Of a stretch of DNA of 64,000 nt, positions 14,960-59,576 are shown one piece after another. The position numbers and the translations under genes were made by a program. Source of the DNA: Anaerolineae bacterium (lineage in GTDB: Bacteria > Chloroflexota > Anaerolineae > S140-20); contig JALUTT010000048.1 in assembly GCA_027021705.1 (NCBI GenBank), positions 32,001-96,000 of the forward strand, given 5' to 3'. Position 1 is the first letter of the stretch; every line of letters begins with the position of its first letter. The notes beneath the pieces were generated by a model. The model searched no databases. It was not told the DNA's origin and saw nothing but the letters and a program-made list of their open reading frames with translations.

Positions 14960-15429
14960 TGCCCCATCCGCAGACGCAGCCACCGTCTTCTTCAGCCTCA
15001 AACCGCCCTCGCCGACGGGTTGGGATTGCTCCCCAGGATGCCCACGTGTTGGTGGTTGAGGACAACCTGAACAACTTCCTGCTCATCACCCGTCTGCTGG
15101 CCTATCTGGGCGTCAAACAGTGTGAGTGGAAGGCTTCGGGGTGGCAGGTTCTCGAATTTGCCGATGCGATGCCTCAGGTGGACCTGATCCTGATGGACAT
15201 CCACATCCCCGATGAAGACGGCTATCAAGCCCTGGCCCGTCTGCGGGCTGAACCCCGTTTCCAGGACACCCTCATTGTGGCCGTCACTGCCGAGGCGACG
15301 GAGGACAACCTGCAGCGGGCCCGGCGGGCCGGCTTCGACGGCTTCATCGGCAAGCCCATTGATCCCGACCGCTTCCCCGATCAGATCCGACGCATCCTGC
15401 GTGGCGAAGAGATTTGGGAGTTGGGCTGA
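14956..15429 (+). CDS. Single-domain response regulator (CheY-like) with N-terminal extension
   Basis: VLVVEDN, DLILMDIHIP, VAVTA, GFDGFIGKPID; overlaps the previous stop. Confidence 0.92.
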   Translation: MMPHPQTQPPSSSASNRPRRRVGIAPQDAHVLVVEDNLNNFLLITRLLAYLGVKQCEWKASGWQVLEFADAMPQVDLILMDIHIPDEDGYQALARLRAEPRFQDTLIVAVTAEATEDNLQRARRAGFDGFIGKPIDPDRFPDQIRRILRGEEIWELG

Positions 15430-15448
15430 CCCCGCCGGGAGACAGGGC

Positions 15449-17926
15449 ATGGGCGACTCGGTGACGGCTCATCGGTCTTCCTCCCCTACGGCCAGAGCCG
15501 GGATGCGGGGGGGGCTGGGGCGCACACTCCTCAGCGCTTTTCTTGTTCTGGCTATCGTCCCGCTCAGCGTCGTCAGCTTCCTGGCCTCCGTCCAGGGGCG
15601 GCGCAACTTGGAGCGGGAGTTGAGGGAGCGGCTGATGGCCGTCACCACCCTTCGGGAGCAGCAGATTCAGGACTGGGTGACTGCCCAGCAGCAAGTCCTC
15701 GCCATGCTGTGCAGTGAGCCCACATTGATCGAGGCCGCTGAGGCTCTGGCAAACCCGCCCAGCGATCCAGAAATCCGGACCGCGATGCGCCGCCGTTTCC
15801 TTCAGATCATCAACCAGTACCCTGATCTTGAGCGCTTGCTCCTCCTCTCCCCCGAGGAAGGGCGGGTGCTGGTTGCTTCTGAGGCCTGGAAGGAAGGTCG
15901 GCGCTACAACGATGCGGCCCTGGTGGCAAAGGGGGGCGCTGGGCCCTACACCTACATCTCTCCGGGGACCGACTCCGGTGCCCCTACCCTGGTCCTGGTC
16001 CGGCCCGTCCGGGATGGGGAGCATCGGCGGGTGGGAACCCTGGTAGCCCACCTGCGTCTGGAGGCCCTGGGCAGGATCTTGGCGGAGAGCGTTGGGCTGG
16101 GCAGCACGGGACGCACCTATCTGGTGCTCCCTTCGGGGGAGATCCTGACCCAGGAGGGCTTTCTAACCGGTCAGGATGGTCGGCCGGCCATCCTCAATCC
16201 TGCCGTGGAGGCCGCTTTGCGGGGGGGGAACGGTATCGCCACCTACAAGAACGAAGCCGGTATCCTTGTGATCGGGGTTCACCGCTGGCTGCCCGACCCG
16301 GGGATCGCTCTGATCACGGAGCAGGCCCAGTCGGAGGCCTTCTCCCGCTCTGACGACCTGGCTGCAGCCCTCATCGCCACGGCCCTAGGTGCGGCTCTGC
16401 TGACTGCCATCATCGCTACCGTTGTCACTCGCCAGATCACCCGTCCCATCGTCCGGTTGACGGAGATGGCGGTTCAGATCGCCTCTGGTGACCTGGATCA
16501 GCGGGTCCCGGCCACCCGCCGCGACGAGATCGGCATCCTAGCCCGCGCTTTCAACATCATGACCGCCCGCCTCCAGGTCCTCTACGAGAGCCTGGAGCAG
16601 AAGGTCGCGGAACGAACCCGCCAACTCCAGGAGGCCAACGCCGAAATCCGCTACCAGGCGATCCAGTTGGCCACCAGCGCCGAGGTCGGGCGAATCGTCA
16701 CGTCCATTTTGGACCTGGAGAGCCTGCTTCCCCAAGTCGTTGAACTGATCCGCGATGCCTTCTCCGCCTATCACGTTTCCCTCTTCCTGACGGACGAAGA
16801 TGGGAAGTGGGCCCTCTTGCGGGAGGGGACGGGCGCGCTGGGAGAGCGGTTGAAGCGGGAGGGGTATCGCCTGCCGCTGGATGAGAGCAACTTGGTGGGA
16901 CGGGCCATCAACCGACGTGAGCCCTGCTTGGCCGTTGGGGAGGAGCGCCGAATCTTGGCCGACGTCGAGACCTTTCCTTACACCCAGGCCGAGTTGGTTA
17001 TCCCCCTCATCGTCCGGGATCGCCCCATTGGGGCGCTCAGCGTGCACAGCCTGGAGGAGGATGCCTTCGCTGGCTCCGAGGTGATGGTCCTGCAGACGCT
17101 GGCCGGCCAGGTGGCCATCGCCATCGAGAATGCTCGGGCCTATGCCCTGGAGCGGGAGGCCGCCGAGCAACTGCGGGAGCTAGATCGCTTCAAGACCCGT
17201 TTCCTAGCCAACATGTCCCACGAGTTGCGGGAACCCCTTAACACCATCATCGGCTTCTCCCGGGTGTTGCTCAAGGGGATTGATGGCCCCCTCAACGAGA
17301 TCCAACGGCAGGACATTACCTTTATCCACGACGCGGGCCAGCACCTGCTGGGCCTCATCAACGACATCCTGGACATCGCCGCCATCGAGGCGGGCAAGAT
17401 GGAACTGACGATCCGGGAGGTGAACCTGCGTGCGCTGTTGCAGAGCGTGATGGCGACGGCCAGCGCTCTGGTGCGCGGTCGCCCCATCGAACTCCAGTAC
17501 GACGTCGCCCCCGACCTGCCCGTCGTCCACGCCGATCCCCAACGGCTGCGTCAGGTGATCCTCAAGCTCCTCTCCAACGCAGCCCAGTTCACCGAAGAGG
17601 GAAGCATCACTCTGCGGGCCTGGAGTGAGGACGAGCAGGTCTTCATCAGCGTCAGCGACACGGGCATCGGCATTCCTGAGGCCGATCGGGATCGGATCTT
17701 CGAGCAGTTTCAGCGCCTGGACGGGAAGGGATCCCCCCACCTGGGGGGGGTTGGGCTGGGCTTGGCCCTGAGCAAGGAGTTCGTAGAGATGCACGGCGGC
17801 CAGATCTGGGTGGAGAGCGGCGTGGGCCGGGGTTCTACCTTCACCTTCAGCCTTCCCGTCCGCCCCATCCGATCGGGGGACCAGACCGTGACGGACGGGG
17901 TCCAGAGAGACGGGGTGTCCCTATGA
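15449..17926 (+). CDS. Membrane sensor histidine kinase (TM-Cache-TM-HAMP-GAF-HisKA-HATPase)
   Basis: FLANMSHELREPLN H-box, LLSNAAQFT, DTGIGI, GVGLGLAL; start inferred (ORF is open from 15212). Confidence 0.93.
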   Translation: MGDSVTAHRSSSPTARAGMRGGLGRTLLSAFLVLAIVPLSVVSFLASVQGRRNLERELRERLMAVTTLREQQIQDWVTAQQQVLAMLCSEPTLIEAAEALANPPSDPEIRTAMRRRFLQIINQYPDLERLLLLSPEEGRVLVASEAWKEGRRYNDAALVAKGGAGPYTYISPGTDSGAPTLVLVRPVRDGEHRRVGTLVAHLRLEALGRILAESVGLGSTGRTYLVLPSGEILTQEGFLTGQDGRPAILNPAVEAALRGGNGIATYKNEAGILVIGVHRWLPDPGIALITEQAQSEAFSRSDDLAAALIATALGAALLTAIIATVVTRQITRPIVRLTEMAVQIASGDLDQRVPATRRDEIGILARAFNIMTARLQVLYESLEQKVAERTRQLQEANAEIRYQAIQLATSAEVGRIVTSILDLESLLPQVVELIRDAFSAYHVSLFLTDEDGKWALLREGTGALGERLKREGYRLPLDESNLVGRAINRREPCLAVGEERRILADVETFPYTQAELVIPLIVRDRPIGALSVHSLEEDAFAGSEVMVLQTLAGQVAIAIENARAYALEREAAEQLRELDRFKTRFLANMSHELREPLNTIIGFSRVLLKGIDGPLNEIQRQDITFIHDAGQHLLGLINDILDIAAIEAGKMELTIREVNLRALLQSVMATASALVRGRPIELQYDVAPDLPVVHADPQRLRQVILKLLSNAAQFTEEGSITLRAWSEDEQVFISVSDTGIGIPEADRDRIFEQFQRLDGKGSPHLGGVGLGLALSKEFVEMHGGQIWVESGVGRGSTFTFSLPVRPIRSGDQTVTDGVQRDGVSL

Positions 17927-18783
17927 CCACCGTGATCGCGGTAGCCAACCACAAGGGCGGGGTTGCCAAGACCACCACCTGCCTCTCGTTGGGGGGAGGG
18001 TTGGTGGAGCAGGGACAACAGGTGCTGCTGGTGGACTTGGATCCTCAAGCCCACCTGACCGCCTCCTTGGGTATCAAGCCGGAGGGACTGCGCCGTAATG
18101 TGGGCGATGTTCTGTTGGGGCAGCGCTCCCTCGTGGCCGTCAGCCGGGAGACCTCTGTCCGAGGGCTGGATCTGGCCCCGGCTAACCAAGAACTCTTCGT
18201 CCTCGACAAGGTCCTGTACGGACGCCGAGGGTACGAATATCGGCTGCGCGAGGACCTGGACCGGATGTCCGAGCACCTTTACGACGTGATCCTGATAGAC
18301 TGTCCACCGACCTTTGGGACGTTGACCCTCAATGCCCTCACGGCCGCCGATCTGCTCATCGTTCCGGTCCAGTGCGAGTACTACGCCGTCCGCTCGCTCC
18401 ATCAGGTGCTGGAAATGGTCACCCTGGTGCGGCGCAAGACCAACCCCCGGCTTGGCTACCGGCTGCTGGTGACGCTCTTCGACGTGCGCAACAAGGTCCA
18501 CCGGCTGCTCCTGGAGCAACTGCGGGCCCGGTTTTCGGAGACGCTCTTCCAAACCGTCATCCAGGTGGACACGAAGCTGCGGGAGAGCCCGGCCTTTGCC
18601 TTGCCGGTCACCCACTACGCCCCCCGTACTCGGGCTGCGCATCAGTACCGGGCTCTGGCTCAGGAGACGATGGAGGTGGTGGCCCCTCGGACCTCCAGCG
18701 TCCCGACCGTAGCGCAGCCTGCCCAGCCAGAGCCGTCGTCGGTGCGTGAGCCGGTCATCGTGGGAGGCGGGATCGAACCGTAA
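17923..18783 (+). CDS. ParA/Soj/MinD-family ATPase (no adjacent parB)
   Basis: Deviant Walker A NHKGGVAKTT, LVDLDPQAH, IDCPP, IVPVQCEY. Confidence 0.93.
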   Translation: MTTVIAVANHKGGVAKTTTCLSLGGGLVEQGQQVLLVDLDPQAHLTASLGIKPEGLRRNVGDVLLGQRSLVAVSRETSVRGLDLAPANQELFVLDKVLYGRRGYEYRLREDLDRMSEHLYDVILIDCPPTFGTLTLNALTAADLLIVPVQCEYYAVRSLHQVLEMVTLVRRKTNPRLGYRLLVTLFDVRNKVHRLLLEQLRARFSETLFQTVIQVDTKLRESPAFALPVTHYAPRTRAAHQYRALAQETMEVVAPRTSSVPTVAQPAQPEPSSVREPVIVGGGIEP

Positions 18784-18842: not shown

Positions 18843-21605
18843 ATGCCTGACGATCGGTTAAAGCGTTCCTTGGAAGAGCTCTTCTCCGATCTAACCCCAC
18901 CGGCCCCGGAGGGGGAGCCCGAGGCGGCCATCCCCCCATCTCTGCCTCCTGAGGAACCGCCCTCGAGGCCGGAGGTTGCCCTCCCACCGACTCCGTCGCC
19001 GGAGCCTATATCCGTTGCCCCCATCGAGGAGCCTTCCCCACCCCCCGGATGGATGCAGCGCCTCTCCCCCCGCCACTGGCGGCTACCGGCCCGGCTGTTG
19101 AGCCTTATGCTGCTGGTCACCCTGCTGCCCCTGATGATCCTCTCACTGCTCTTCTTCCGTGAAGGGGCGCGCGTCGTGGAGAACAGCGAGTTGCGCAACA
19201 TGGAGGCCATTGCCACGGGCCTGGCTCACCAGATAGACCAGTTGCTCTCTGATATGACCAGTGTGACCTCTATACCTGCTGATGAGGCTCCTGAGTTCCT
19301 CGTCCGGCTGCCTGCTGACCGAACGGACCTGATCGAGACCCTGCGGATCTTCTACAACGTGCCGGAGGATGTCGAAGCGTACCGGGAGGCTCGGGCCCGC
19401 TTGGAAGCTCTGGGCTTGTTAAAGCCTCTGAAGGCCGTGCATAGGGAGTTCCGAGCGATCCAGGAAGCCTATCACACCTTTGAGTCTATCTGCATCCTGG
19501 ATGACGCTGGCTACTGCCTGGCCGCCACCGACCCCAAGCTGGTTGGCCGTTCCTTTGCCACCAAGCGTTTCTACCAGATGGCGATGGAGGGCCAGGCTTT
19601 TACCTCCGACATCGAACCGGAGCTAGCGACCGGGCGCTTTGGCGTCGCGTTTGCCCGGCCCATCGTCGCCGACGATGGACGAATTCTGGGGGTTCTTGTC
19701 GCTCGCCTGGATGCCACCCCCATCTGGCGGATTCTGGAGGAGGTCTCCCTGGAGCCGGGGAGCTACGCGGTCCTGGTCAACCGGGACGGCATTATCATCG
19801 GCCACTCCGAGCGGGGGAACATCTATCAGAGCCTAGGGCCACTGTCCTCTGCCGTGCAGGAGGAGATCCGTCAGAGCCGCCGTTTCGGCGTGGAGGCGAT
19901 GCGGGACCTGGGGTTGCCTCAGGTTGCCGAGGCGCTGGCAGCCGCCAAGGGTCCTGGGCACATCCAATACCAGCGGGGAGATCAAGTGGAGTTCATGGGG
20001 TTCGCTCCCCTCCAGCAGCACACCTGGGTGGTGGGTGTGGTCAAACCCCAAGCCCAGTTGCTGGCCCCGCTGGGCGCTTTGGCCAACCGAGCGCTGGTGA
20101 TCGCCCTGGTCGTCGGGCTGATCGCCGGCGGTCTGGCCCTCCAGTTCAGTCACACGATCACCCGCCCTATCCTCCGGCTAACCGAGGTCGCCACCGCCAT
20201 CGCCAGCGGGGACTTGCGGCGAGAGGTGCCCATCGAGCGGGAAGATGAGATCGGTCTGCTGGGTCGGGCCTTCAACCGGATGGCGGCCCAACTGCGGGAG
20301 TTGATCGGAGGGTTAGAGGCCACGGTGGCCGAACGGACTCGGGCCCTTCAGGAGGCCAACTACCACCTCCAGAAGCGGGCCATCTACCTGGAGGCCAGCG
20401 CCGAGGTAGCCCGGGCCATCACCTCCATCCTCGACGTGGACCAGATGCTCCAGCGGACGGTAGACCTGATCCAGGAGCGGTTTGGCTTCTACCACGTTTC
20501 CATCTTTTTGGTGGACGAGGCGGAGGAGTGGGCTGTGGTACGGGCCTCGACGGGAGAGGTGGGGCGGATTATGATGGAAAAGCCCCACAAGCTGCGGGTG
20601 GGTGGACGCAGTATGGTGGGATGGACGGCGGCCCACCGGCAGCCCCGCATCGCCCTGGACGTGGGGGCCGATGCGGTCCACTTCGACAACCCGCTGCTGC
20701 CTCACACCCGTTCGGAGATGACGCTCCCCTTGATGATGCGGGGGCGGCTCCTGGGCGTGCTGGACGTTCAGTCCACCGAAGAGGCGGCCTTCGACGAGGA
20801 TGACGTGCGGGTGCTGCACAGCCTGGCCGACCAGATCGCCATCGCTCTGGAAAATGCCCGCCGGGTCTCCGACGAGGCAGCCCTGCTGGAGGCGACCAGC
20901 CCTCTCTACCGAGCCAGCCGCCGGTTGACGGAAGCGGTCTCCGCCGACCAGGTGGCAGAAGCCTTCATCGCCTCGGTGGTTGCCACCGAAGCCGATGGAT
21001 GCCTCGTCGGGCTTCTGGAGCCGCCGGATAGCGAAGAGCCGGATGCGGTCCACTTCATCGGCTCCTGGGGACGGGATGGAGTGGCCCCTGTCCCCGCCGG
21101 CTCCCGCTTCCCCCTCTCGGCCAGCCCTATCTCCGTCGCCTTCCTGTTGGAGCGTCAGGTGCTGTCCGAGATCGTCGAGGCTACCTCGCTCTCGCCCGAT
21201 CAGATCGCCTACCTGCAACGGGTGGGGGTGCAGGCGCTGATCAACATCCCCCTTCAGGGCGGCAAGAGGAAGATCGGCTTCGTCACCATCTTCCGAAAGC
21301 GCTCAGGCTCTTTCTCGGAGGCCACCCTGCGCCTGTACGAAGCCCTGAGCGGTCAAGTGGCAGTGGCCCTGGAGCGGGTGTGGCTCCTAGAGATCGCCCG
21401 TCGGCAGGCCGAGGAGGAGGCGGCACTGCGCGCCCTCGGCGATCGCCTGGCCCGGGCGGTGGATATGGAAGTGCTCCTCCAGAGCGCCGCCGAGGGGTTG
21501 GAACAGGCCCTGCGGGCCGGAGGGGTCTACATCGAGCTAGGCCCGGCACCGTTGGATGCGGACCTGCCGGGAAATGGGCGGGGAGGGGACAAGCGCCCAT
21601 CTTGA
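18843..21605 (+). CDS. Kinase-less receptor 1: Pro-rich N-terminus, TM-Cache-TM-HAMP-GAF-GAF
   Basis: HAMP EREDEIGLLGRAFNRM; core GAF GFYHVSIFL...PRIALDVGADAVHFDNPLLPHTRSEM; no H-box, GGDEF or EAL motif seen. Confidence 0.85.
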   Translation: MPDDRLKRSLEELFSDLTPPAPEGEPEAAIPPSLPPEEPPSRPEVALPPTPSPEPISVAPIEEPSPPPGWMQRLSPRHWRLPARLLSLMLLVTLLPLMILSLLFFREGARVVENSELRNMEAIATGLAHQIDQLLSDMTSVTSIPADEAPEFLVRLPADRTDLIETLRIFYNVPEDVEAYREARARLEALGLLKPLKAVHREFRAIQEAYHTFESICILDDAGYCLAATDPKLVGRSFATKRFYQMAMEGQAFTSDIEPELATGRFGVAFARPIVADDGRILGVLVARLDATPIWRILEEVSLEPGSYAVLVNRDGIIIGHSERGNIYQSLGPLSSAVQEEIRQSRRFGVEAMRDLGLPQVAEALAAAKGPGHIQYQRGDQVEFMGFAPLQQHTWVVGVVKPQAQLLAPLGALANRALVIALVVGLIAGGLALQFSHTITRPILRLTEVATAIASGDLRREVPIEREDEIGLLGRAFNRMAAQLRELIGGLEATVAERTRALQEANYHLQKRAIYLEASAEVARAITSILDVDQMLQRTVDLIQERFGFYHVSIFLVDEAEEWAVVRASTGEVGRIMMEKPHKLRVGGRSMVGWTAAHRQPRIALDVGADAVHFDNPLLPHTRSEMTLPLMMRGRLLGVLDVQSTEEAAFDEDDVRVLHSLADQIAIALENARRVSDEAALLEATSPLYRASRRLTEAVSADQVAEAFIASVVATEADGCLVGLLEPPDSEEPDAVHFIGSWGRDGVAPVPAGSRFPLSASPISVAFLLERQVLSEIVEATSLSPDQIAYLQRVGVQALINIPLQGGKRKIGFVTIFRKRSGSFSEATLRLYEALSGQVAVALERVWLLEIARRQAEEEAALRALGDRLARAVDMEVLLQSAAEGLEQALRAGGVYIELGPAPLDADLPGNGRGGDKRPS

Positions 21606-21614
21606 TTCCCTCGA

Positions 21615-21726
21615 TATTCAGCCTACCCTCCCGCAGGTCACCGGTGGAGGGCGCTTTCAGCCCCGATGGGCTATTGGGAAGCACGGTTTCGCGTCGGAAA
21701 CGCGCCTAACCTGCGGGAGGATGAAC
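21615..21726 (-). repeat. ~110-bp palindromic interspersed element, copy 2 (inverted)
   Basis: Reverse complement of 1596-1706 with few differences; a degenerate partial copy follows at ~21826-21890. Confidence 0.9.
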
Positions 21727-21945
21727 CGTTGCGAATCGTCGGTGTCCGTATCGCGTTAAATCCGGTAGTGGTAGATGAGGGCCCCTTGGGAACGGGAGGT
21801 AGCGGCATGGGGGCGACAGCGGTTATCATCCTCCCGCAGGTCACGCGCTGCCCGGTGGTAGCAATAGCTCATCGGCGGCGGCCTGGGATGCCCTTCAGGC
21901 CGTGGGGAGGACCTGTGGGAGAGTCCCTGAAAAAGGAGCTGTCCC

Positions 21946-22605
21946 ATGATCTCTCGTCCCCTGTCTCGAGAACGATACGTCCTGCTCACCCTCGCCCTGG
22001 TGCTGGCTTACAACTTCTCGGCCTCGCTTGTGGGATGGGGGTGGATCACCGCAACGGTCATCTCGTTCGGCGTGGTCGCCCTCAACGTTGCCTACACCTA
22101 CCGGTATCGGGATGGGCTGATCGGTCGCCTCGTGCTCTTCGGCCTGGCCGCCGGGTTCACGGAGCTGCTGGCCGATTGGTACCTGGTGGTCTTCACGGGT
22201 ACCCTTGTCTACAACCCAGGGGGACCCTTTCTGGTGCGTTCACCGCTCTACATGCCCCTGGCGTGGAGCGTGGTGCTGGTCCAGTTGGGGTTCATTGGCC
22301 ACTGGCTGACCCGGCGGATCGGGCTACCGGCAGCGATGCTGGCCAGCGGCTTGATCGGCGCGGTCAACATTCCGCTTTACGAGGAGTGGGCCCGGAGCGC
22401 CCAATGGTGGACTTACCAGGATACGCCGATGTTCAGCGCGACGCCCTACTACATCATCCTTGGCGAGTTCCTCATTACCCTGGTGCTTCCCTTTATCCTG
22501 AGGGAAGTCGAGCGTCGTTCGCCCCTCCAAGTGGTGTTGCTGGGGATCGGACAGGGCTTGTGGATCTGGTTTTCGTATGCCTTGGCCTTCGGGCTGGTCG
22601 GCTGA
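21946..22605 (+). CDS. Uncharacterised multi-pass membrane protein (possibly DUF6989-like)
   Basis: About six hydrophobic helices; AAGGAG RBS; motifs ELLADWYLV, PLYMPLAW, LYEEWA, WWTY. Confidence 0.7.
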   Translation: MISRPLSRERYVLLTLALVLAYNFSASLVGWGWITATVISFGVVALNVAYTYRYRDGLIGRLVLFGLAAGFTELLADWYLVVFTGTLVYNPGGPFLVRSPLYMPLAWSVVLVQLGFIGHWLTRRIGLPAAMLASGLIGAVNIPLYEEWARSAQWWTYQDTPMFSATPYYIILGEFLITLVLPFILREVERRSPLQVVLLGIGQGLWIWFSYALAFGLVG

Positions 22606-22651
22606 TGGGGTCGTGTTGATGGGGTCTTGATGGAGCCGTTGGAGACGACGC

Positions 22652-24361
22652 ATGGCTACAGGACCGCGATTTCACTCGCTCTCACCTGAAGAAGAAGAAA
22701 GGCGTCTGGAGCTGTTGCAGATCATTCTGATCGGTCAGGCCGTCGGGGCTGCCCTCATCGGGCTAGCGGTGATCGCGGTGTGGTACTTCAACCCCTCCCC
22801 GCTCACCTTCATCACCATCTTCCCGCCCTGGTTGGCGCTGCCCATCTGCGCCTTTGCCTACTGGCTGGCCCGACGAAAGCGCCTTTACCTCGCCACCTAC
22901 TTCTACATCATCACCACCGTCTTCCTGGTGGCCAGCGGCATCTACCTGGTGGGAGGCGCTCAGGGGCCGATGGCCTACTTCTTCATCTGGTTCATCCTGG
23001 TGGCCGGGATGCTCATTGACGTGCGGGCCGCCTTTGAGGTCGCTGCCCTGGTCACCGCCATTTACCTCTTCTTCACCTTGGGGGAGTTGGGAGGATGGAT
23101 TGTGCCACCGATGGACGTCTACCAGCGGGTGGCCGAGTACATCTTCCCCGGCTTCGCGATGTTGCTCTTTTGGCTGGTGGCCCTGCTGACCCGTCTCTTC
23201 AGTGGCAGCTTGCAATCGGCCCTGGACAAGGCTCGGCAGTTGACCGCTGAGTTGCAGGCCCACCGGGAGGAGCTGGAGGAGCAGGTCGCCCTGCGCACGG
23301 CGGACCTGGAGCGCCGGGCCGTGCAGATCCAGGTGGCGGCGGAGGTCGCCCGCGATGCCACGGCGGTTCTCGACGTTGAAGCGCTGATGCGCACCACGGT
23401 GGAGCGGATTGGCGAGCGTTTCGGCTTCTACCATGTCGGTATCTTCCTGCTGGACGAGGGGGGCGAGTACGCGGTGCTGCGGGCAGCCTCCTCGGAAGGG
23501 GGCAAGCGGATGCTGGCCCGGGGCCACAAGTTGAAGGTGGGGGAGGAGGGCATCGTCGGTTACGTGGCCGAGACCGGCCGGCCCCGCATCGCCTTGGACG
23601 TGGGGGAGGATGCGGTTTGGTTTGACAACCCGGACCTGCCTCACACCCGTTCGGAGATGGCGTTGCCGCTGAAGGTGCGCGGGCGGGTCATCGGCGTGCT
23701 GGACGTGCAGTCCACCCAGGAAGCCGCCTTCAAAGAGGAGGACATCCCGGTGCTCCAGCTCCTGGCCGATCAATTGGCTACCGCTCTGGAGAACGCACGC
23801 CTCTTCGCTCAGGCCCGGTCGAGCCTGGAAGAGCTGAGCCGTCTCTACCAGGCGATGACGGGAGAGGCCTGGCGACGGTTCACAACCTCCTGGCCGGACC
23901 TGCGCCGATTCCAGCGGGGAGCCGACGCGGTGCCGGAGGAAGCCTGGCGGGACCTCTTCGCCCAGGCCCGTTCCCAGGGACAACCGGTGAGGGGGTTCTG
24001 GGAGAATGGTGAGGGGGGCTGGTACCTGTTGGCTGTGCCGGTCAGGCTGCGCAACGTGCCCATTGGGGTGGTGGGATTCCATCGTCCTCAAGAGGCCGGC
24101 GAGTGGCGCAGGGAGGAGATCGTCTTCGCCGAGAGCTTGGCCGAACGGGTTGCCCTCTCCCTGGAGAACGTTCGACTCTTCGAGGAAGCCCAACGCCGCG
24201 CCCAGCGGGAGCAGTGGATCAGTCAAGTGACCGCGCGGATGCAGCGTTCTCTGGACTTGGAAACGGTGATGCGGGCGGCCGTGCGAGAGATCGGTCAGGC
24301 CATCGGGGCTGCCAAGGTGCAACTGCGGTTGAGGACGGATGGTCTGGAGCAGGAAGGGTGA
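22652..24361 (+). CDS. Kinase-less receptor 2: ~6 TM plus GAF plus C-terminal module
   Basis: Hydrophobic N-terminus, coiled coil, core GAF, tail RAQREQWISQVTARMQRSLDLE. Confidence 0.87.
   Translation: MATGPRFHSLSPEEEERRLELLQIILIGQAVGAALIGLAVIAVWYFNPSPLTFITIFPPWLALPICAFAYWLARRKRLYLATYFYIITTVFLVASGIYLVGGAQGPMAYFFIWFILVAGMLIDVRAAFEVAALVTAIYLFFTLGELGGWIVPPMDVYQRVAEYIFPGFAMLLFWLVALLTRLFSGSLQSALDKARQLTAELQAHREELEEQVALRTADLERRAVQIQVAAEVARDATAVLDVEALMRTTVERIGERFGFYHVGIFLLDEGGEYAVLRAASSEGGKRMLARGHKLKVGEEGIVGYVAETGRPRIALDVGEDAVWFDNPDLPHTRSEMALPLKVRGRVIGVLDVQSTQEAAFKEEDIPVLQLLADQLATALENARLFAQARSSLEELSRLYQAMTGEAWRRFTTSWPDLRRFQRGADAVPEEAWRDLFAQARSQGQPVRGFWENGEGGWYLLAVPVRLRNVPIGVVGFHRPQEAGEWRREEIVFAESLAERVALSLENVRLFEEAQRRAQREQWISQVTARMQRSLDLETVMRAAVREIGQAIGAAKVQLRLRTDGLEQEG
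23448..23721 (+). repeat. 274-bp near-identical intragenic repeat, copy A
   Basis: Matches 25704-25977 except two C/T differences by manual comparison. Confidence 0.9.
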
Positions 24362-24364
24362 GAC

Positions 24365-26596
24365 GTGGAGCGTGAGGAGAGAGAGCCTATGGAGGAGGCT
24401 GTGAATCGGTCGCCTGTGCGCCTATCCTTCGGATTACACGGGACCCTGGCGGTCAGGTTGGTCATCACCTTCATCCTCTTCGCCATCGTGCCCGTTCTTG
24501 TGGTGGGGGTGCCGGCGGCCTTCTGGTCCATCGCCCGCACCGAGCAGGGAGCTCTGGCCTCCCTGGAGGCCAGCGCGGTCCGGCAGGCCGAGGCACTGGA
24601 GGGCGCTATCCAGGATTGGCAGGCAGCGGTGGATGCCCTGGCGGCGGACCCAAAGGTGGCCATCAACCTTCAGGTTATGATGGGAATGGTAGAGGCCGAT
24701 GCACGCAAAGAGGCCCACGACAACCTGGTCTATCGCCTCGAACAGTTCCTGGCCGGCCACCAGAGCTTCCAGGATGCGATCATCGTGGATCTCGAGGGCA
24801 CCGCTCTCCTCTCCACGGCCTCCTATCGGGAAGGGGAAGACCTGAGCGCCGATCCTGCCGTGGCGTGGGCGCTGGGCCTGCCCATTCTCTCCAAAGCCGC
24901 CGTTCACTGGGGACCTGAGCAGCGGACCCCCGTCGTTGCTGTGCCGCTCCGCTTCTCCGCCGGTGATACTCGGGCCATCTTCGTGGCCTGGCTGGACGAC
25001 GATGCCGTGGCCCGTCTGCTCCAGGGGGCTGCCGTCACCTCGTTGTCCAGCCGGACCTATCTCTTCAGTCGCGAGGGGATGGTGGGGGCTGTGCCCGCCC
25101 TCGGCCCATCGGCGGCCGTCTCCTTTGGCTCCCCGGAGATTATGAGGGCTGCCCTGGTCGGCGGGTCAGGCGTTGCCAAGTACCGGAACGACGATGGGGT
25201 GGTGATGCTGGGGGCTTACCGTTGGCTGCCCACCTTGCGGATGGGGCTCCTGACGGAGGTCCCCCGCCAGGTGGTCGTAGAAGGCGTGATGGGCGCCATC
25301 GGCCGGGCCGTTGGTCTGCTCTACGTAGTCGGTTGGATAGGGCTGGTCGTCGCCGTCGCGATGGCCCGCAGCATCTCGATGCCTCTGGTGCGGCTGGCCC
25401 AGGCTGCCGAGCAGGTGGCTCAAGGGGACTTGAGCGTGCGCGTGCCCAGCGGGGGCCGGGATGAACTGGGGCTGCTGGTCCGAGTCTTCAACACGATGAC
25501 GGCCCAGTTGGAGCAGAGCGTCGGTGCCCTTGAGGAAGAGGTGGCGGCTCGCACGGCCAGCCTGCAGCGACGCACCTCCCAACTGGAGGCCACCATTGAG
25601 GTCACCCGTGTAGCCGCCTCGACGTTGGAGATGGACCACCTCCTCCAGCGCGTGGTGGACCTCATCTCCGAGCGCTTTGATTTCTATCACGCTGGCATCT
25701 TCTTGCTGGACGAGGGGGGCGAGTACGCGGTGCTGCGGGCAGCCTCCTCGGAAGGGGGCAAGCGGATGCTGGCCCGGGGCCACAAGTTGAAGGTGGGGGA
25801 GGAGGGCATCGTCGGTTACGTGGCCGAGACCGGCCGGCCCCGCATCGCTTTGGACGTGGGGGAGGATGCGGTTTGGTTTGACAACCCGGACCTGCCTCAC
25901 ACCCGTTCGGAGATGGCGTTGCCGCTGAAGGTGCGCGGGCGGGTCATCGGCGTGCTGGATGTGCAGTCCACCCAGGAGGCTGCCTTCACCCAGGAGGACA
26001 TCACCGTCCTCCAGGTGCTGGCCGACCAGGTGGCCATCGCCATTGACAACGCTCGCCTCTTCCAGGAGGCCCAGGAGAACCTGCAAGAGCTGGAGAGCCT
26101 CTACGGGCGTTACAGCCGGGAGGCCTGGGAGCGGTTGGGGCAGACCTACCCCATCGTCGGTTATCGCTACGACCCGTCGGGCCTTTCGCCCATCTTCGGC
26201 GACGGTGCCGGGGAGGGTGAGGCCGACGAAGAGGCTCCGATCCGCATCCCTCTAGAGGTGCGGGGGCAGGTGATCGGGACACTTGAGGTCTGGCCCGAGC
26301 AGGAGGCCCTGATCTCCGATCAGATTACCCTGCTCAAGGCGGTTGGGCTTCGGATCAGCCAGGCGCTGGAGAGTGCCCGTCTCTTCCAAGAGACGCAGCA
26401 GCGGGCCTGGCGCGAGCAGATGCTCCACCAGTTGACCGCCCGGTTCGCCCGTTCCATTGATCTGGATACGGTGCTGCAGACGGCGGTGCGTGAGTTGGCG
26501 CAGTTGCCTCACGTCGCCGAGGCCTCCATCCACGTGAGCCCCCCGGAAGTCCCTCCCCCGGCGAATGGGGGTGAGGAGGTAGCCCAGGATGAGTGA
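24365..26596 (+). CDS. Kinase-less receptor 3: TM-Cache-TM-HAMP-GAF plus C-terminal module
   Basis: GRDELGLLVRVFNTM HAMP; core GAF; tail RAWREQMLHQLTARFARSIDLD; alternative ATG at 24389. Confidence 0.86.
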   Translation: MEREEREPMEEAVNRSPVRLSFGLHGTLAVRLVITFILFAIVPVLVVGVPAAFWSIARTEQGALASLEASAVRQAEALEGAIQDWQAAVDALAADPKVAINLQVMMGMVEADARKEAHDNLVYRLEQFLAGHQSFQDAIIVDLEGTALLSTASYREGEDLSADPAVAWALGLPILSKAAVHWGPEQRTPVVAVPLRFSAGDTRAIFVAWLDDDAVARLLQGAAVTSLSSRTYLFSREGMVGAVPALGPSAAVSFGSPEIMRAALVGGSGVAKYRNDDGVVMLGAYRWLPTLRMGLLTEVPRQVVVEGVMGAIGRAVGLLYVVGWIGLVVAVAMARSISMPLVRLAQAAEQVAQGDLSVRVPSGGRDELGLLVRVFNTMTAQLEQSVGALEEEVAARTASLQRRTSQLEATIEVTRVAASTLEMDHLLQRVVDLISERFDFYHAGIFLLDEGGEYAVLRAASSEGGKRMLARGHKLKVGEEGIVGYVAETGRPRIALDVGEDAVWFDNPDLPHTRSEMALPLKVRGRVIGVLDVQSTQEAAFTQEDITVLQVLADQVAIAIDNARLFQEAQENLQELESLYGRYSREAWERLGQTYPIVGYRYDPSGLSPIFGDGAGEGEADEEAPIRIPLEVRGQVIGTLEVWPEQEALISDQITLLKAVGLRISQALESARLFQETQQRAWREQMLHQLTARFARSIDLDTVLQTAVRELAQLPHVAEASIHVSPPEVPPPANGGEEVAQDE
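25704..25977 (+). repeat. 274-bp near-identical intragenic repeat, copy B
   Basis: See 23448-23721. Confidence 0.9.
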
Positions 26597-28820
26597 TGGG
26601 AAGAAGACCAAGGAGCAGCTGATCGGAGAACTGCAGAAGCTACGCCGGCAGATCGCCGAGCTGCGAGAAGAGCGTCAGCGGACCGAGACGGAGCTCCTCC
26701 AGTGCTATCAGAGCCAGGAGGTGCTGAACGCTCTCTTCCAGCTCTCCTTGGAAGAGGCGACGTTGGAGGAGCAACTGGAGCGCGCTCTGGATGTCATCTT
26801 CACCACGCCCTGGCTCTCTATGTTGCCCAAGGGCAGCATCTTCCTCGTCGAAGATGATCCGGAGGTGCTGGTCCTGAAGGCGCAGCGGGGGCTGCCCCCA
26901 TCGCTGCAGACCAAGTGTGCCCGGCTTCCCTTCGGGCGCTGTCTCTGTGGCCGGGCCGCTGCCAGTGGCGAACTCCAGTTTGCCGACTGCGTGGACCACC
27001 GCCACGAGCACACCTACGAGGGCATCTCACCCCACGGGCACTACAACGTCCCGATCCTGCTAGAGGGTGAGGTGGTGGGTGTCCTCAACCTCTACGTCGA
27101 GGAAGGACACCGGCGGGATGAGCGGGAAGAGACTTTCCTGAAGGCGGTGGCCGGCACCCTCGCCAGCCTGATCAAGCGCAAGCGCGAAGAAGAAGAGCTG
27201 CGGCGAAGCCACCAGAGCCAGGAGGTGCTGAACGCTCTGATGCGCCTCTCTCTGGAGGAGACCTCGCTGGAAGAGCAGTTGGAGCGAGCCCTCGACGTGA
27301 TCCTCTCCACCCCCTGGCTCCCCGCGCTGCCGAAGGGGGGCATCTTCCTTGTGGAGGGGGATTCCGGCGAAATCGTGTTGAAGGCCCAGCGGAACCTAGA
27401 CGATCCGTTGCTGACCCTGTGCGCTCGGGTGCCCTTTGGCCGCTGCCTCTGTGGTCGGGCGGCGGCGAGCGGCAAGATCCAGTTTGCGGACAGGGTGGAC
27501 GACCGCCACGAGATCCACTTTGAGGGGATGGCCCCTCACGGCCACTACAGCGTTCCCATCGTCTTGGACGATAGGGTGGTGGGCGTGATCGTCGCCTACG
27601 TGGAGGAAGGGCACCGGCCGAACAGACAGGAGGAAGCCTTCCTGGAGGCAGTGGCGAACACGCTGGCCGGCCTGATCAAGCGCAAGCAGGCGGAAGAAGC
27701 GCTGCAGCGGGCTCACGATGAGTTGGAGCGACGGGTCGAGGAGCGCACCCGCGATCTGGAGCACAGAGCTGTACAGCTTCAAGTGGCCGCTGAGGTGGCC
27801 CGCGACGCGGCCACAGCCTGGGAACTGGATACCCTGTTGGAGCGGGCCGTCAACCTCGTTCGCGACCGATTCGGCTTTGACCACGTGGGCATCTTCCTGA
27901 CGGACGAGCGGGGCGGGTATGCTCTCTTGAAGGCGGCGACGGAGGAGATGGGCCGCCAGTTGCTGGAACAGGGATACAAGCTGAGGATCGAAGATGGGGG
28001 CCTCGTCGGATCCGCCATCGCTACCGGCGAACCCCAGGTCGCCCTTGATCTCGAGGCGGACGGCGAAGCTGCTGAGGTCCCCTTGCTCCCCCACACCCGG
28101 TCGGAGGTGGTCCTGCCGCTCAAGGTGGGGGATCAGATCATCGGTGCCCTTGATGTGCGCAGCACCGATAGCGCCGTCTTTGGGCAGGATGACGTGGCGG
28201 TCCTGCAGATCGTGGCCGACCAGTTGGCGGTGGCCATCGAGAAGGCGCACCTGCTCCACGAGATGGAGCAGACGGTCCACGAACTGGAAGCGGCCTATGG
28301 GCGTTACACCCAGGAGTCGTGGCGTGCCTTCGTCCAGAGCGCTGGACAGCCCTACGGCTACCGGTACCGAGGGTTGGATGTCGAACGGACCACGGAGCTG
28401 CACCCGGAGGCGCGGGAAGCCCTGCAGCAGGGCCGTTCGGTGGTCACCATCCTCCAGCCAGAGGTGGAAGACGGTCAGCAGAACGCCGTCAGCGCTCTGG
28501 CTGTGCCCGTCAAGCTGCGCGGTCAGGTGATCGGGGTCCTCAACCTGCGCTTCGAGGACAAAACCATCCTGCCGGAGACCATTTCGCTGGTAGAGGAGGC
28601 AGCCGGTCGGTTAGCCCTCGTGCTGGAGAGCGCCCGCCTCTTCAGCGAGGCCCAGGCCCGTGCTGAGCGCGAACGCCTGATCGCCGACATCACGCACCAG
28701 GTGTGGGCGGCGCGGGATTTCCAGCAGATTGTCGAGACGACCTTGCGTTCTTTGAGTCAGGTGCTCGGGGCCTCAGAGGCCGTCGTCCGTCTCCAGACCA
28801 ACGGGCAGCAAGAGGGGTGA
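26589..28820 (+). CDS. Kinase-less receptor 4: cytoplasmic, two Cys-rich GAF domains plus GAF plus C-terminal module
   Basis: Duplicated CAR(L/V)PFGRCLCGRAA and HGHY motifs; no TM segment. Confidence 0.87.
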   Translation: MSDGKKTKEQLIGELQKLRRQIAELREERQRTETELLQCYQSQEVLNALFQLSLEEATLEEQLERALDVIFTTPWLSMLPKGSIFLVEDDPEVLVLKAQRGLPPSLQTKCARLPFGRCLCGRAAASGELQFADCVDHRHEHTYEGISPHGHYNVPILLEGEVVGVLNLYVEEGHRRDEREETFLKAVAGTLASLIKRKREEEELRRSHQSQEVLNALMRLSLEETSLEEQLERALDVILSTPWLPALPKGGIFLVEGDSGEIVLKAQRNLDDPLLTLCARVPFGRCLCGRAAASGKIQFADRVDDRHEIHFEGMAPHGHYSVPIVLDDRVVGVIVAYVEEGHRPNRQEEAFLEAVANTLAGLIKRKQAEEALQRAHDELERRVEERTRDLEHRAVQLQVAAEVARDAATAWELDTLLERAVNLVRDRFGFDHVGIFLTDERGGYALLKAATEEMGRQLLEQGYKLRIEDGGLVGSAIATGEPQVALDLEADGEAAEVPLLPHTRSEVVLPLKVGDQIIGALDVRSTDSAVFGQDDVAVLQIVADQLAVAIEKAHLLHEMEQTVHELEAAYGRYTQESWRAFVQSAGQPYGYRYRGLDVERTTELHPEAREALQQGRSVVTILQPEVEDGQQNAVSALAVPVKLRGQVIGVLNLRFEDKTILPETISLVEEAAGRLALVLESARLFSEAQARAERERLIADITHQVWAARDFQQIVETTLRSLSQVLGASEAVVRLQTNGQQEG

Positions 28821-28851: not shown

Positions 28852-31806
28852 ATGACGCTGACCGATACCGTCATTCTGTGGACTATTGCAGCGGCCAACC
28901 TCTTGCTGGGGGGGTACATCTTCGTGATGGACCCGCGTCATCGGGCCAACCGCTATCTGAGCGGGATGCTCCTGCTGGGGGCTCTCTACAATTTCGCCCT
29001 GGGGAGCATGGCGCGAGACCTCTTCCCAAAGCCCCAGCTTTGGCCCTTCTACGTGCTGGTGATTACGCTGCCGGTCATCAGCCCGATGATGGTTTTGAGC
29101 ACCATCGCTCTTTTGCAACCGATCTGGTTGGACAGCGGATGGGGGCGATGGATGGCGCGTCTCCTGCACCTCCTGATCCTGCTCCCTCCGCTGCTGGTTC
29201 TGCGCGATGAGCTCGGCCCTGGCCGCCTCTACTTCGCTCCTCCCGCTTCCTACGCCGGGGGCTACGTCGCTCCTCGGGCCTACCTCCAGCAGCCCTTGGG
29301 CTGGATGCTCTTCCTGCTCAGTGAGCGCTGGATCTCGCTGATCGCCCTGGCCACCATCCTCGTCACCCTCCTCTCGAGACGGGCATCTCCTCGTGTCCGA
29401 CGCCTGGCCAGCGGGCTGCTCGTCACCCACTTGGCCGTCACGGCACTCTTCCTGGGAGGACGCAGCCTTCTCCCCATCCCTTCCTTTTGGATTGCCTCGT
29501 TGGGCAGCGCCATCCTGGCCCTGATCTACACCCTGGTGGCCCTCCCTGGCTACCTCTCGAATGCCTTCTTCGAGCGATGGATCGCCAACATCCCGGTGGG
29601 ACGCAAGATGCTGTTGGTTAACAGCGTCCTGTCGGTGGCCGCCATTCTGATGGGGATCGGGGTGATGTGGAGCACAGAGGCCAGTCGCCGGATCCTCCGG
29701 GAGAAGCTGGATGCCGAGCAGACCAAGCTCTACCGGCTTAGCAAAATCGAGTCGTCCCTGCGGGAACTCCAAGGGCTCCACCTGCGCTTCTACGACCAGT
29801 GGCTGACGGCGAACCCCGATGTCCAGAATTTCGATTTCCTGCTGGTCCGCTATCAGGTACCTATGGGGAACGTCCTCGACCTCCTGGATCAGGACCTGGA
29901 GTGGCTCTACGGGGTGGAGGAGGATGAGCCGGCCGACGTGATGGAGATCGCTGCGATAGAGTCCCGTATGCAAGCCTATCGCCAGAGCCTGGCCGGCCTG
30001 ATTCAGAGCATGCGGATGGTGGGGCGGGTTGGACGGGAGGGGACCGCACGGCTACAGGCTATGAGCGACCTGGTGGAGGCCAACGGGTTGAGCACCATCT
30101 TGGAGACGGTGCACAGGGTCTGGCACTACCAGGATGCCTACCTGTTGAATCCGACGGACGATCAGGCCGAGGTGATCCAGGACGAGGTGGACCGGTTGAC
30201 GACCAGCATAGCGGCCCTCTCGGCGGATCAGCTTTCCGATCAGGATCGCGCCCACTTGAACACCTTGCTGATCGAATACCGCCAGCAGTTCCAGCAGTTC
30301 ATTGAGCTCCGTGCGGATGCCTCAGCGCACCTGGCCAGTCTGGAACGCGACAGCGAAGAGGCTCTTATGGCCCTGGAACGGCTGCGTTCCTACGAACAGG
30401 CCGAGTTCAACGAGTTGATGCGGGCCCTCAACGCCCGTCAATTGACCACCCGAGCCATCGTGCTGGGTATCCTGGCCCTGAGCCTCATCGCCACCTACTT
30501 CTTCAGTTGGAACATAGCCGACCAGATCAGCCGGCCCGTCCAGGTCCTGGCCGAGGTTGCTTCCCGGCTGGGGGCCGGGGAGCTGGACGCGCGGACCGGG
30601 ATGCGGCGGCAGGACGAACTGGGGGTGGTGGCCCTCCGGCTCGATCAGATGGCGGATCAGCTCCAGGGTCTCTTGAGCGACTTGGAGATTCAGGTGGCCG
30701 AGCGAACCCGGGCCCTGGAACGGCGGGCTACCCAGATCCAGGCAGTGTCCGAGGTGGGACGGGCTGTGGCTGCAGTGCGCCATCTGGATCAGCTGCTGGA
30801 CCGGGTCGTCCACCTTATCTCCGAGCGGTTCGGCTTCTACCATGCCGGCATCTTTCTGATGGATGAGGAGGGCCGCTGGGCGGAACTCCGCGCTGCCAGC
30901 AGCCCTGGCGGTCAGCAGATGCTGGCCCGGGGCCATCGGCTGGCGACGGGTGACACCAGCATCGTCGGTTGGGTGGCTCAGCACCGGCAGCCCCGCATCG
31001 CTCTAGACGTGGGGGAGGATGCCGTCTGGTTTGACAACCCCGACCTGCCCCAGACGCGCTCGGAGATGGCCCTGCCCCTCATCGCTGGTGGGGAACTGCT
31101 GGGCGTGCTCGACGTGCAGAGCACCGAGGCAGGGGCCTTCAGCGAGGAGGACGTCGAGGTTCTCCAGCTTCTGGCCGATCAGGTCGCCATCAGCATCGTC
31201 AACGCCCGCCTCTTCGTCCGGATGCAGGAGGCGCTCCAAGAGGTGGAAACGCTGAACCGGCAGCTTACCGGGCGGGCGTGGGAGGAGTTCGTCCGCGCCA
31301 CGGGCCTTCCCCCTGGCTACCGCTATCGGGCAACCCGCCTGGAGCCCCTCCGCGACGGTTCGGAGGATCCCGTCCTGGACCAGGCTGCCAAGCGCCAGCG
31401 CGTCGTAGTGGTCCAGCAGGATGGGCAGGCGGAGATGGCACTGCCCCTGGTGCTGCGAGGGCAGGTGATCGGTACCCTCGGCTTCCGGCGTCAGGACGGT
31501 CAGAGTTGGGATGCGAGAACCGTAGAGGTCGCCCAGGCTATCGTCGAGGAGATGGTTCGCGCCCTGGAAAGCGCCCGCCTCTTCGAGGAAGCCCAGGCCC
31601 GCGCCGCCCGCGAGCAGGTGACGGCTCGGGTCGTCGCCCGCATCCGCGAGTCGTTGGACCTGGACACCGTGCTGCGGACGGCCGCTCAGGAGATGCAGAG
31701 GGTGCTCAACCTGGCGGAGGTCGAGGTGCGAGTCGGCGGGGACAGGACGTCAGGACAGGCAGAGGATCAGCCCCCTGCTGAGCGGGGCGAGGGAGGGACC
31801 CGATGA
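28852..31806 (+). CDS. Kinase-less receptor 5: multi-TM domain, helical bundle, HAMP, GAF, C-terminal module
   Basis: About 7-8 TM at the N-terminus (DPRHRANR, reminiscent of HisKA-7TM starts), QDELGVVALRLDQM HAMP, core GAF. Confidence 0.85.
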   Translation: MTLTDTVILWTIAAANLLLGGYIFVMDPRHRANRYLSGMLLLGALYNFALGSMARDLFPKPQLWPFYVLVITLPVISPMMVLSTIALLQPIWLDSGWGRWMARLLHLLILLPPLLVLRDELGPGRLYFAPPASYAGGYVAPRAYLQQPLGWMLFLLSERWISLIALATILVTLLSRRASPRVRRLASGLLVTHLAVTALFLGGRSLLPIPSFWIASLGSAILALIYTLVALPGYLSNAFFERWIANIPVGRKMLLVNSVLSVAAILMGIGVMWSTEASRRILREKLDAEQTKLYRLSKIESSLRELQGLHLRFYDQWLTANPDVQNFDFLLVRYQVPMGNVLDLLDQDLEWLYGVEEDEPADVMEIAAIESRMQAYRQSLAGLIQSMRMVGRVGREGTARLQAMSDLVEANGLSTILETVHRVWHYQDAYLLNPTDDQAEVIQDEVDRLTTSIAALSADQLSDQDRAHLNTLLIEYRQQFQQFIELRADASAHLASLERDSEEALMALERLRSYEQAEFNELMRALNARQLTTRAIVLGILALSLIATYFFSWNIADQISRPVQVLAEVASRLGAGELDARTGMRRQDELGVVALRLDQMADQLQGLLSDLEIQVAERTRALERRATQIQAVSEVGRAVAAVRHLDQLLDRVVHLISERFGFYHAGIFLMDEEGRWAELRAASSPGGQQMLARGHRLATGDTSIVGWVAQHRQPRIALDVGEDAVWFDNPDLPQTRSEMALPLIAGGELLGVLDVQSTEAGAFSEEDVEVLQLLADQVAISIVNARLFVRMQEALQEVETLNRQLTGRAWEEFVRATGLPPGYRYRATRLEPLRDGSEDPVLDQAAKRQRVVVVQQDGQAEMALPLVLRGQVIGTLGFRRQDGQSWDARTVEVAQAIVEEMVRALESARLFEEAQARAAREQVTARVVARIRESLDLDTVLRTAAQEMQRVLNLAEVEVRVGGDRTSGQAEDQPPAERGEGGTR

Positions 31807-41949: not shown

Positions 41950-42013
41950 GGGGGCGGGAGCCCCATGAGTTGTCGTTTTGCCGGGAGTTGTACAACAAAA
42001 GGAGGCGCGGAAA

Positions 42014-56244: not shown

Positions 56245-56300
56245 CCCCGCCGAGGTGGGAAAGGATAGCATCGTTGTGCTTCCACCCCGCCGAGGTGGGA
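56245..56300 (+). repeat. 16-bp direct repeat CCCCGCCGAGGTGGGA x2, 40-bp period
   Basis: Exact copies at 56245-56260 and 56285-56300; each can form a CCCGCC-GA-GGTGGG mini-hairpin. Confidence 0.8.
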
Positions 56301-56362
56301 TCTACCGGCAACTGGACCTTATCCCCCAAAAGTGCGCGCGGAAGGAAGGAGTCAAAGAAGCC

Positions 56363-59573: not shown

Positions 59574-59576
59574 ACG

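Follow-up and report, generated by a model that had tools for sequence, protein, structure and literature searches.

A stretch of 64,000 nt from an Anaerolineae bacterium (assembly GCA_027021705.1, contig JALUTT010000048.1, positions 32,001–96,000, forward strand; G+C ~65%), called the window here, carries a single long gene cluster, all on one strand (15212 to 58027), in which ten sensor proteins (R1–R10, the receptors) end in the same short tail: the head of a GAF domain, cut after its first strand. We propose that this tail folds as a self-contained cap at the far tip of a receptor dimer and forms the constant output end directed towards the hybrid histidine kinase of the same cluster, a reading to which we assign a probability of about 0.45. 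All ten receptors combine sensor domains with GAF domains, and Pfam scans found no output domain in them; since HisKA/DHp and HATPase domains were also absent, R1–R10 do not classify as two-component sensor histidine kinases. Their sensor heads vary (Cache, PAS, MASE11, PilJ-like and six-transmembrane), and R10 is a membrane protein with eight GAF stretches. The tail is described here by its composition, homology, conserved cut point, predicted fold, coevolution and gene neighbourhood. New in this analysis are the rejection of a circular permutation within one chain, coevolutionary evidence for a self-contained tail next to a closed sheet in the preceding unit, and a kinase that has no headless socket.

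The C-termini of R2–R9 consist of a unit of ~120 residues marked by a Trp (the Trp unit), followed by the tail of ~50 residues, with a mean column identity of 47–48% across the alignment and invariant columns at the Trp, the Pro of LAVP, the Gly of GQVIG and the RA.RE motif. Hidden Markov models (HMMs) of both parts were built from this alignment and run on 30,405 six-frame open reading frames (ORFs) of the whole genome. The tail HMM identified R2–R10 with E-values of 1.3e-17 to 1.8e-24 and R1 at 6e-5; elsewhere in the genome two ORFs reached 1e-3, with 0.08 for the best single stretch in either. Because the internal GAF heads of this genome miss the tail HMM (best stretch 0.08), the terminal heads form a specialised subset. 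Full-length matches to the Trp unit were confined to R2–R9 (1.8e-31 to 6e-47) and to internal positions in R10 (1.1e-33) and the giant kinase of the cluster (1.3e-33), and ordinary GAF domains of the genome matched only the C-terminal half of its HMM (positions ~60–120). In R1 and R10 the tail comes after a complete GAF domain, and in all ten receptors the stop codon lies 5–21 residues past the tail match. This pattern is far beyond chance, and it bears out what the sequence-only reading of this DNA had described, namely Trp unit plus tail at the ends of R2–R9, a tail also at the ends of R1 and R10 and a Trp unit inside R10 and the giant kinase. That reading took R2 (a 569-residue ORF, 22652–24361) as its example and marked the stretch 23830–24361, which covers the last 176 residues; its start was one base out of frame, and the R2 module begins at about 23816.

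When the tail profile was compared with a 175-column profile of the linker-plus-GAF repeats of the kinase, hhalign matched 53 columns (2–54 against 2–54) at 93.5% with an E-value of 2.4e-7, and 15 of 47 tails reached Pfam GAF on their own (best E 0.0018). The tail is thus homologous to the N-terminal part of GAF repeats and therefore corresponds to a connector helix, the first helix and the first strand of a GAF domain, as had been supposed. It would be the start of what would have been the next GAF in a multi-GAF protein, ended by a stop a few residues on.

The point at which the domain is cut had been noted as the same in all ten receptors, and it proved to be conserved in homologues. The full-length module (Trp unit and tail) was found in 13 of 41 related genomes, in clusters of several to ~20 genes. 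In DNA from 11 of these 13 genomes the tail HMM gave 65 ORF hits, of which 62 end 4–59 residues before the stop codon (overlapping loci were counted twice; of the remaining three, one is cut by the end of the locus and two are weak rows from one gene). Full-module matches numbered 250 among all gathered sequences; in 218 the match falls no more than 70 residues from the C-terminus, and the remaining 32 are Trp units inside a protein with an entire GAF behind them. A profile search of a representative library placed the module at the very end of at least 24 of the best 150 proteins, a search dominated by giant multi-GAF proteins that gives no clean size for the tail family; the tail profile alone found 139 proteins at E ≤ 1e-5. 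Among the matches listed, 116 of 120 tail-bearing proteins are without a HATPase domain, and those that have a name are mostly called "GAF domain-containing protein" (three "PAS domain S-box-containing protein", one "hypothetical protein"). Most named sources of tail-bearing proteins belong to Chloroflexi or Anaerolineae, alongside a single Blastocatellia record, and 46 loci with relatives in named records all belong to Chloroflexota metagenome-assembled genomes (mostly Anaerolineae, Anaerolineales and Thermoflexales), a taxonomic range that is a lower bound as this single-protein scan reaches close relatives only. Across 47 sequences from 12 genomes, pairwise identity was 0.42 in the first helix of the tail (the stalk), 0.38 in its second, back-folded helix, 0.42 in the first GAF domain of the receptors (GAF1) and 0.18–0.36 in the Trp unit, and it dropped to 0.14 right after the tail strand, where a mildly acidic extension rich in Gly, Ala, Glu, Asp and Pro follows (median 7 residues). 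Judged by this conservation, the tail is under selection of its own.

AlphaFold2 monomer models were generated from a 47-row alignment for R2 residues 209–569 and for the R7 module alone, with a mean predicted local distance difference test score (pLDDT) of 90.7 and 90.5, respectively. GAF1 of the R2 model is a textbook GAF domain (Z 22.2, root-mean-square deviation (rmsd) 2.2 over 165 residues, against 3trc). The R7 module is predicted to begin with a 34-residue incoming helix, two short strands, a short helix and two long strands, the model having four to five short strands in all, and to continue through a 46-residue helix and a 15-residue helix to an extended end without beta pairing. The last strand lies outside any beta ladder in both monomer models, which represent two paralogues. 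Modelled as helix, helix and extended segment, the tail has block-mean pLDDT values of 66–95; along the extended end the block means run from 87 to 66 in R2 and from 93 through 80 to 57 at the very end in R7. The best matches to the whole model were 8w26 (Cph1 GAF-PHY) and PDE5A GAF-A/B, and the structural alignments that reach the tail were those with 3mf0_A (PDE5A GAF-A/B; 159 residues, rmsd 4.6), 4bwi_B (Cph2) and 8w26_A (Cph1). The aligned chain ranges of these three continue past the first domain, which suggests that the tail takes the position occupied in tandem proteins by the head of the following domain, at a distance from the body before it. A homodimer prediction for the R7 module (two copies, own alignment) scored 0.00 against a mark of 0.42 and, having been run without controls, carries no weight either way.

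Coevolution within the module was analyzed by a mean-field method on 201 terminal modules (effective number of sequences, Neff, 175). Couplings inside the tail accounted for 15 of the top 30 pairs against 1.9 expected, and couplings between tail and body were rarer than expected (5 against 9.2). The stalk and the back-folded helix couple in the manner of an antiparallel hairpin (i+j ~317), and the tail strand couples to both tail helices. In the Trp unit, the pairs 40–100 and 43–98 join its small first strand to its own last strand, so that the sheet is closed and no slot is left open.

The Trp unit itself matched only part of a GAF domain. Module residues 56–133 alone align to the GAF profile, at 98.3% over columns 83–175 of 175 (the last 93 columns); nothing in it corresponds to the first 55 residues, which comprise the Y..EAW helix and a small hairpin, and no match over a full domain profile (PF01590 or PF13185) was obtained for the unit. 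In an exhaustive structural search, the listed top hits of the module were GAF-fold or GAF-like (IclR, SpoVT, CodY), with weak matches (Z up to 8.8, 77–102 residues aligned, against Z 22 over 165 residues for GAF1 of the same protein) that begin ~40–50 residues into single-domain GAF structures, and Foldseek returned no match for the module alone at E ≤ 0.001 (best E 2e-3). The Trp unit is probably a shortened GAF that keeps the back half of the domain (the last helix, preceded by a short helix and the LAVP...GQVIG beta hairpin) and whose front half is replaced by the extended incoming connector helix, which bears the near-invariant Trp, and by the small hairpin that closes the sheet. The supposition that this unit is without the usual early GAF elements was thereby upheld.

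The gene neighbourhood of the module recurs in three related clusters that were annotated (G001, G005 and G012). In G001 the order is kinase, ParA-like gene, receptors with a binding protein among them, a long multi-GAF tail bearer, hybrid kinase and a gene for a threonine-synthase-like (ThrC-like) pyridoxal phosphate (PLP) enzyme fused to a receiver domain (PALP-REC). All of these gene types except the small kinase ahead of the ParA-like gene are present in G005, where the ParA-like gene stands partway along the receptor array, and the fetched stretch of G012 holds receptors, hybrid kinase and PALP-REC only. ParA-like homologues with 43–63% identity adjoin module genes in ten further loci, as well as occurring in the G001 and G005 clusters. 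The giant hybrid kinase is likely the partner of the receptors, and the ThrC-like receiver protein is likely the end of a phosphorelay.

From these features we infer a dimeric state, docking and a direction of signalling. HAMP domains imply dimers, and as most of the receptors have such a domain, dimers are expected here too. The tail would fold on itself, with the extended segment packed on both the stalk helix and the back-folded helix, and form a small cap at the membrane-distal tip of a rod-shaped receptor rather than complete the Trp unit. Signals from the variable sensor heads would pass down the helices, via GAF1 and the shortened GAF, to this cap, which would control the hybrid kinase of the cluster by protein contact inside an assembly organised by ParA. 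The kinase, with the same cassette of GAF1 and Trp unit ahead of its kinase core, would then hand phosphate to the ThrC-like receiver protein. Two adjacent Trp units were found in the kinases of G005 and G033; the G005 pair immediately precedes HisKA, so the Trp unit can be the last transmitter element before the kinase core. The two kinases with such pairs lie at L013:3552–6617 (−) and L021:1963–5580 (−).

Several points weigh against the proposed output cap. The contact between tail and kinase is a matter of inference, and a cap that merely stabilised the end of a coiled coil would give identical sequence signals. The giant kinase shows no obvious complementary socket, its first GAF being complete (residues 68–216 cover profile positions 1–136 of 136). 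The packing of the last segment was derived from pLDDT, DSSP and alignment ranges only, and the coevolution analysis drew on few sequences (Neff 175) that share ancestry and align best over the tail, which inflates the tail-internal signal. Finally, the reading is favoured by a PALP-REC fusion in 12 of 13 module-positive against 2 of 28 module-negative related genomes, but these groups were set by an E-value threshold after the data had been seen, and the related genomes are not independent.

The main rival, which we consider possible though rather unlikely, is that the tail only ends and stabilises a dimeric coiled coil, like the next-domain helices at tandem-GAF junctions, and that coupling to the kinase runs through side contacts of the GAF1 and Trp-unit cassette or through a common GAF1 ligand. 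The self-contained tail with its few couplings to the body (5 against 9.2 expected in the top 30) fits such a purely structural role, and no region is more conserved than GAF1, a textbook GAF (Z 22). One type of GAF1 (F.FYH.GIFL..., ...TRSE.ALPL...) is common to R1–R9, R10 (residues ~400–545) and the giant kinase (residues 750–918), with an unusually high pairwise identity of 0.50 among R2–R9, which suggests a common ligand or partner. An enzyme pair of the terpene-nucleoside type also lies within the cluster and would suit a shared ligand, but it was found in only two of the four fully examined clusters. Moreover, nothing about a simple cap would require that its signature stay different from internal GAF heads across many genera, or that the strand be retained.

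A second alternative, which we regard as improbable, is that the orphan head docks in trans, as a plug, into a head-poor GAF body, a Trp unit belonging to the kinase or to a different receptor, and so connects receptors with the kinase or with one another in chains. Heads and head-poor bodies stand side by side in every cluster, the window holds ten tails and ten Trp units, and all six cluster kinases examined have at least one Trp unit and no tail, all of which would be expected of plug and socket. However, the sheet of the Trp unit is already closed, both by the pairs 40–100 and 43–98 and in both AlphaFold2 models, strong couplings between tail and body are few, and none of the six kinases (the giant kinase and five related ones) begins with a half GAF. 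The equal numbers in the window also differ from those elsewhere: tails against Trp units number 17 and 19 in the fetched stretch of G005, 7 and 8 in G001 and 9 and 6 in G012, and the counts are unequal also in three partly fetched clusters. A one-to-one stoichiometry of tail and Trp unit (a daisy chain) was dropped as a rule because of these unequal counts in other clusters.

The sequence-only reading had itself favoured a circularly permuted or strand-swapped GAF, and this part of it found no support; the docking role that it proposed is plausible. In the version confined to one chain, the tail would fold back and lend its strand to the sheet of the Trp unit before it, thereby completing that sheet. 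In its favour, the Trp unit is ~40 residues shorter than the GAF repeat, a deficit of roughly the size of the tail, and only the back half of a GAF is recognizable in its sequence. Neither the two monomer models, where the last strand is unpaired, nor coevolution places the C-terminal strand within the sheet of the preceding unit: its partners lie in the tail's own helices and the sheet of the Trp unit is closed. A continuous helix of 46 residues separates body and tail, and the tail superposes on the next-domain head of PDE5 GAF-A/B, Cph2 and Cph1. The two parts also occur independently, with tails after complete GAFs in R1, R10 and many homologues (including four of the nine tail bearers in G012) and Trp units without tails inside R10 and the kinases. 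We therefore reject permutation in cis as very improbable. Still less credible is an evolutionary leftover, in which truncation of multi-GAF genes left a stub without a function of its own: homology of the tail to the junction and head of internal GAFs would be expected of it, but over 200 proteins, spread across many lineages of Anaerolineae, share the cut point and the distinct signature, and conservation of the tail equals that of GAF1 and then falls sharply right after the strand.

With the output cap retained as the preferred reading, the features of the cluster are listed in Table 1. Several neighbouring receptor genes, namely R3/R4, R5/R6 and R6/R7, abut or overlap by 4–8 bases, and genes for a DUF6989 protein, a periplasmic binding protein and two terpenoid enzymes are interspersed among them. 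The ATPase of the cluster belongs to the deviant Walker A P-loop (ParA/MinD) family by its Pfam match, with matches to the NCBIfam ParA, RepA and MinD models only below the curated cut-offs; the PALP-REC protein of the window likewise scores below every NCBIfam cut-off.

Table 1 Features of the receptor cluster, in window positions.
Feature	Position	Strand	Details
Membrane histidine kinase (dCache-HAMP-GAF-HisKA-HATPase)	15212–17926	+	First gene of cluster
ParA/MinD-type ATPase	17923–18783	+	Pfam AAA_31 6.3e-49, CbiA 4.1e-16; between first kinase and R1
R1 tail, divergent, after complete GAF	21396–21545	+	Tail HMM E 6e-5
R2 Trp unit (probable shortened GAF)	23819–24184	+	Own HMM, independent E-value (iE) 1.4e-43; AlphaFold2 model of R2 209–569
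R2 tail	24185–24337	+	Tail HMM 6.5e-23; 7 further residues, then stop 24359–24361
R3 module	26072–26542	+	Trp unit 26072–26389, tail 26390–26542; HMM
R4 module	28269–28802	+	Trp unit 28269–28646, tail 28647–28802; HMM
R5 module	31225–31740	+	Trp unit 31225–31587, tail 31588–31740; HMM
R6 module	33129–33632	+	Trp unit 33129–33479, tail 33480–33632; HMM
R7 module	34871–35392	+	Trp unit 34871–35239, tail 35240–35392; HMM; module modelled alone
R8 module	36698–37210	+	Trp unit 36698–37057, tail 37058–37210; HMM
R9 module	40358–40897	+	Trp unit 40358–40744, tail 40745–40897; HMM
R10 internal Trp unit	45197–45631	+	iE 1.1e-33
R10 tail, after complete GAF	48182–48334	+	Tail HMM 1.3e-17
Giant hybrid histidine kinase, 2599 aa	48443–56242	+	Pfam: 12 GAF stretches, HisKA, HATPase, 2 REC
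Giant kinase internal Trp unit, then complete GAF, no tail	51203–51601	+	iE 1.3e-33
Threonine-synthase-like PLP enzyme fused to C-terminal receiver domain (PALP-REC)	56255–58027	+	

The DUF6989 protein (21946–22605, +; Pfam 1e-40) is encoded between R1 and R2 and has homologues in the G005 cluster and at locus L026. An overlapping ORF in another frame (21666–22619, 317 aa) has no Pfam hit and is probably spurious; it shows no relationship to the 318-residue protein at 40934, which is the first of the two terpenoid enzymes. This protein (40934–41890, +) is related over its full length to solved structures named "Diterpene synthase / RV3378C" (3wqk, E 6e-23), its nearest Atlas cluster being "Diterpene synthase family protein", and the second enzyme (41978–43543, +) is a class II diterpene cyclase of 521 residues (6vpt_A "Cyclase", E 1.3e-66). 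The pair lies in a region of lower G+C (0.54) and is kept in the G005 cluster with 32% and 39% identity. The mycobacterial relatives make a terpene nucleoside, and that a terpenoid made by the cluster might be the ligand of the conserved GAF1 is speculation. Directly 3' of the cluster (58221–60818, +; G+C 0.57), a weak DNA methylase match and a BsoBI-like endonuclease form a probable restriction-modification pair. Elsewhere the genome encodes dozens more multi-GAF proteins of up to 2531 residues (on contigs C28, C59, C5 and many others), and one of 1783 residues on C28 has a weak Trp-like unit and weak tail-like stretches.

Sensor proteins without an output domain usually go unexplained in genome annotation, and more than 100 of those found here end in the same defined way and share a conserved gene neighbourhood. 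Should the tail be a docking surface, it would represent a new type of signalling architecture, in a bacterial class that is large and mostly uncultured, and provide, as a peptide module of 50 residues, a handle on how receptors converge on one kinase. It would also suggest that a fragment of a common domain can persist as a functional unit that domain-based annotation misses. In the open-access full-text literature we found no description of the module or the system.

Tandem GAF modules (GAF-A/GAF-B of PDE2A, PDE5A and PDE6, and CyaB2) and the GAF-PHY pairs of phytochromes likewise consist of a GAF, a long connector helix and a second GAF-like unit; here, however, the second unit is shortened (Z up to 8.8 only), a third is cut after its first strand, and no catalytic or kinase domain follows in the receptors. 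Chemoreceptor arrays are built from methyl-accepting chemotaxis proteins (MCPs), CheW and CheA, and some are positioned by ParA-like ATPases (ParC, PpfA). The present cluster resembles them in its many paralogous rod-like receptors with variable sensor heads and a constant membrane-distal tip, in its one shared kinase and in the ParA-type ATPase encoded alongside. It differs in that the constant tip is GAF-derived, and neither an MCP signalling domain nor CheA, CheW or methylation enzymes were found by Pfam among 18 cluster proteins and 57 proteins of three related clusters, so that the system is not a chemoreceptor array of the known type. In the stressosome (RsbR paralogues, RsbS and RsbT), sensor paralogues with a shared C-terminal assembly domain serve one kinase; the receptors here similarly combine variable N-termini and a conserved C-terminal part with one kinase, but no STAS domain was found and the kinase is a two-component hybrid histidine kinase. 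The receptor cap would thus be analogous in its logic to the chemoreceptor tip or the STAS core of the stressosome, although derived from a GAF fragment. Control of a histidine kinase by direct protein contact rather than phosphotransfer is described for the RetS–GacS multikinase network (PMC8498467), where RetS works through DHp–DHp contact; the receptors of this cluster, by comparison, have no DHp. Overall, we tentatively suggest, as a possibility still on the doubtful side, a third way of wiring sensors to a kinase in Anaerolineae besides chemoreceptor arrays and the stressosome, in which enzyme-less rod dimers, in an assembly organised by a ParA-type ATPase, would present an orphan GAF head at their tip as the kinase-control surface, and a shared hybrid kinase with the same GAF1 and Trp-unit cassette would integrate their inputs and phosphorylate a receiver-fused PLP enzyme.

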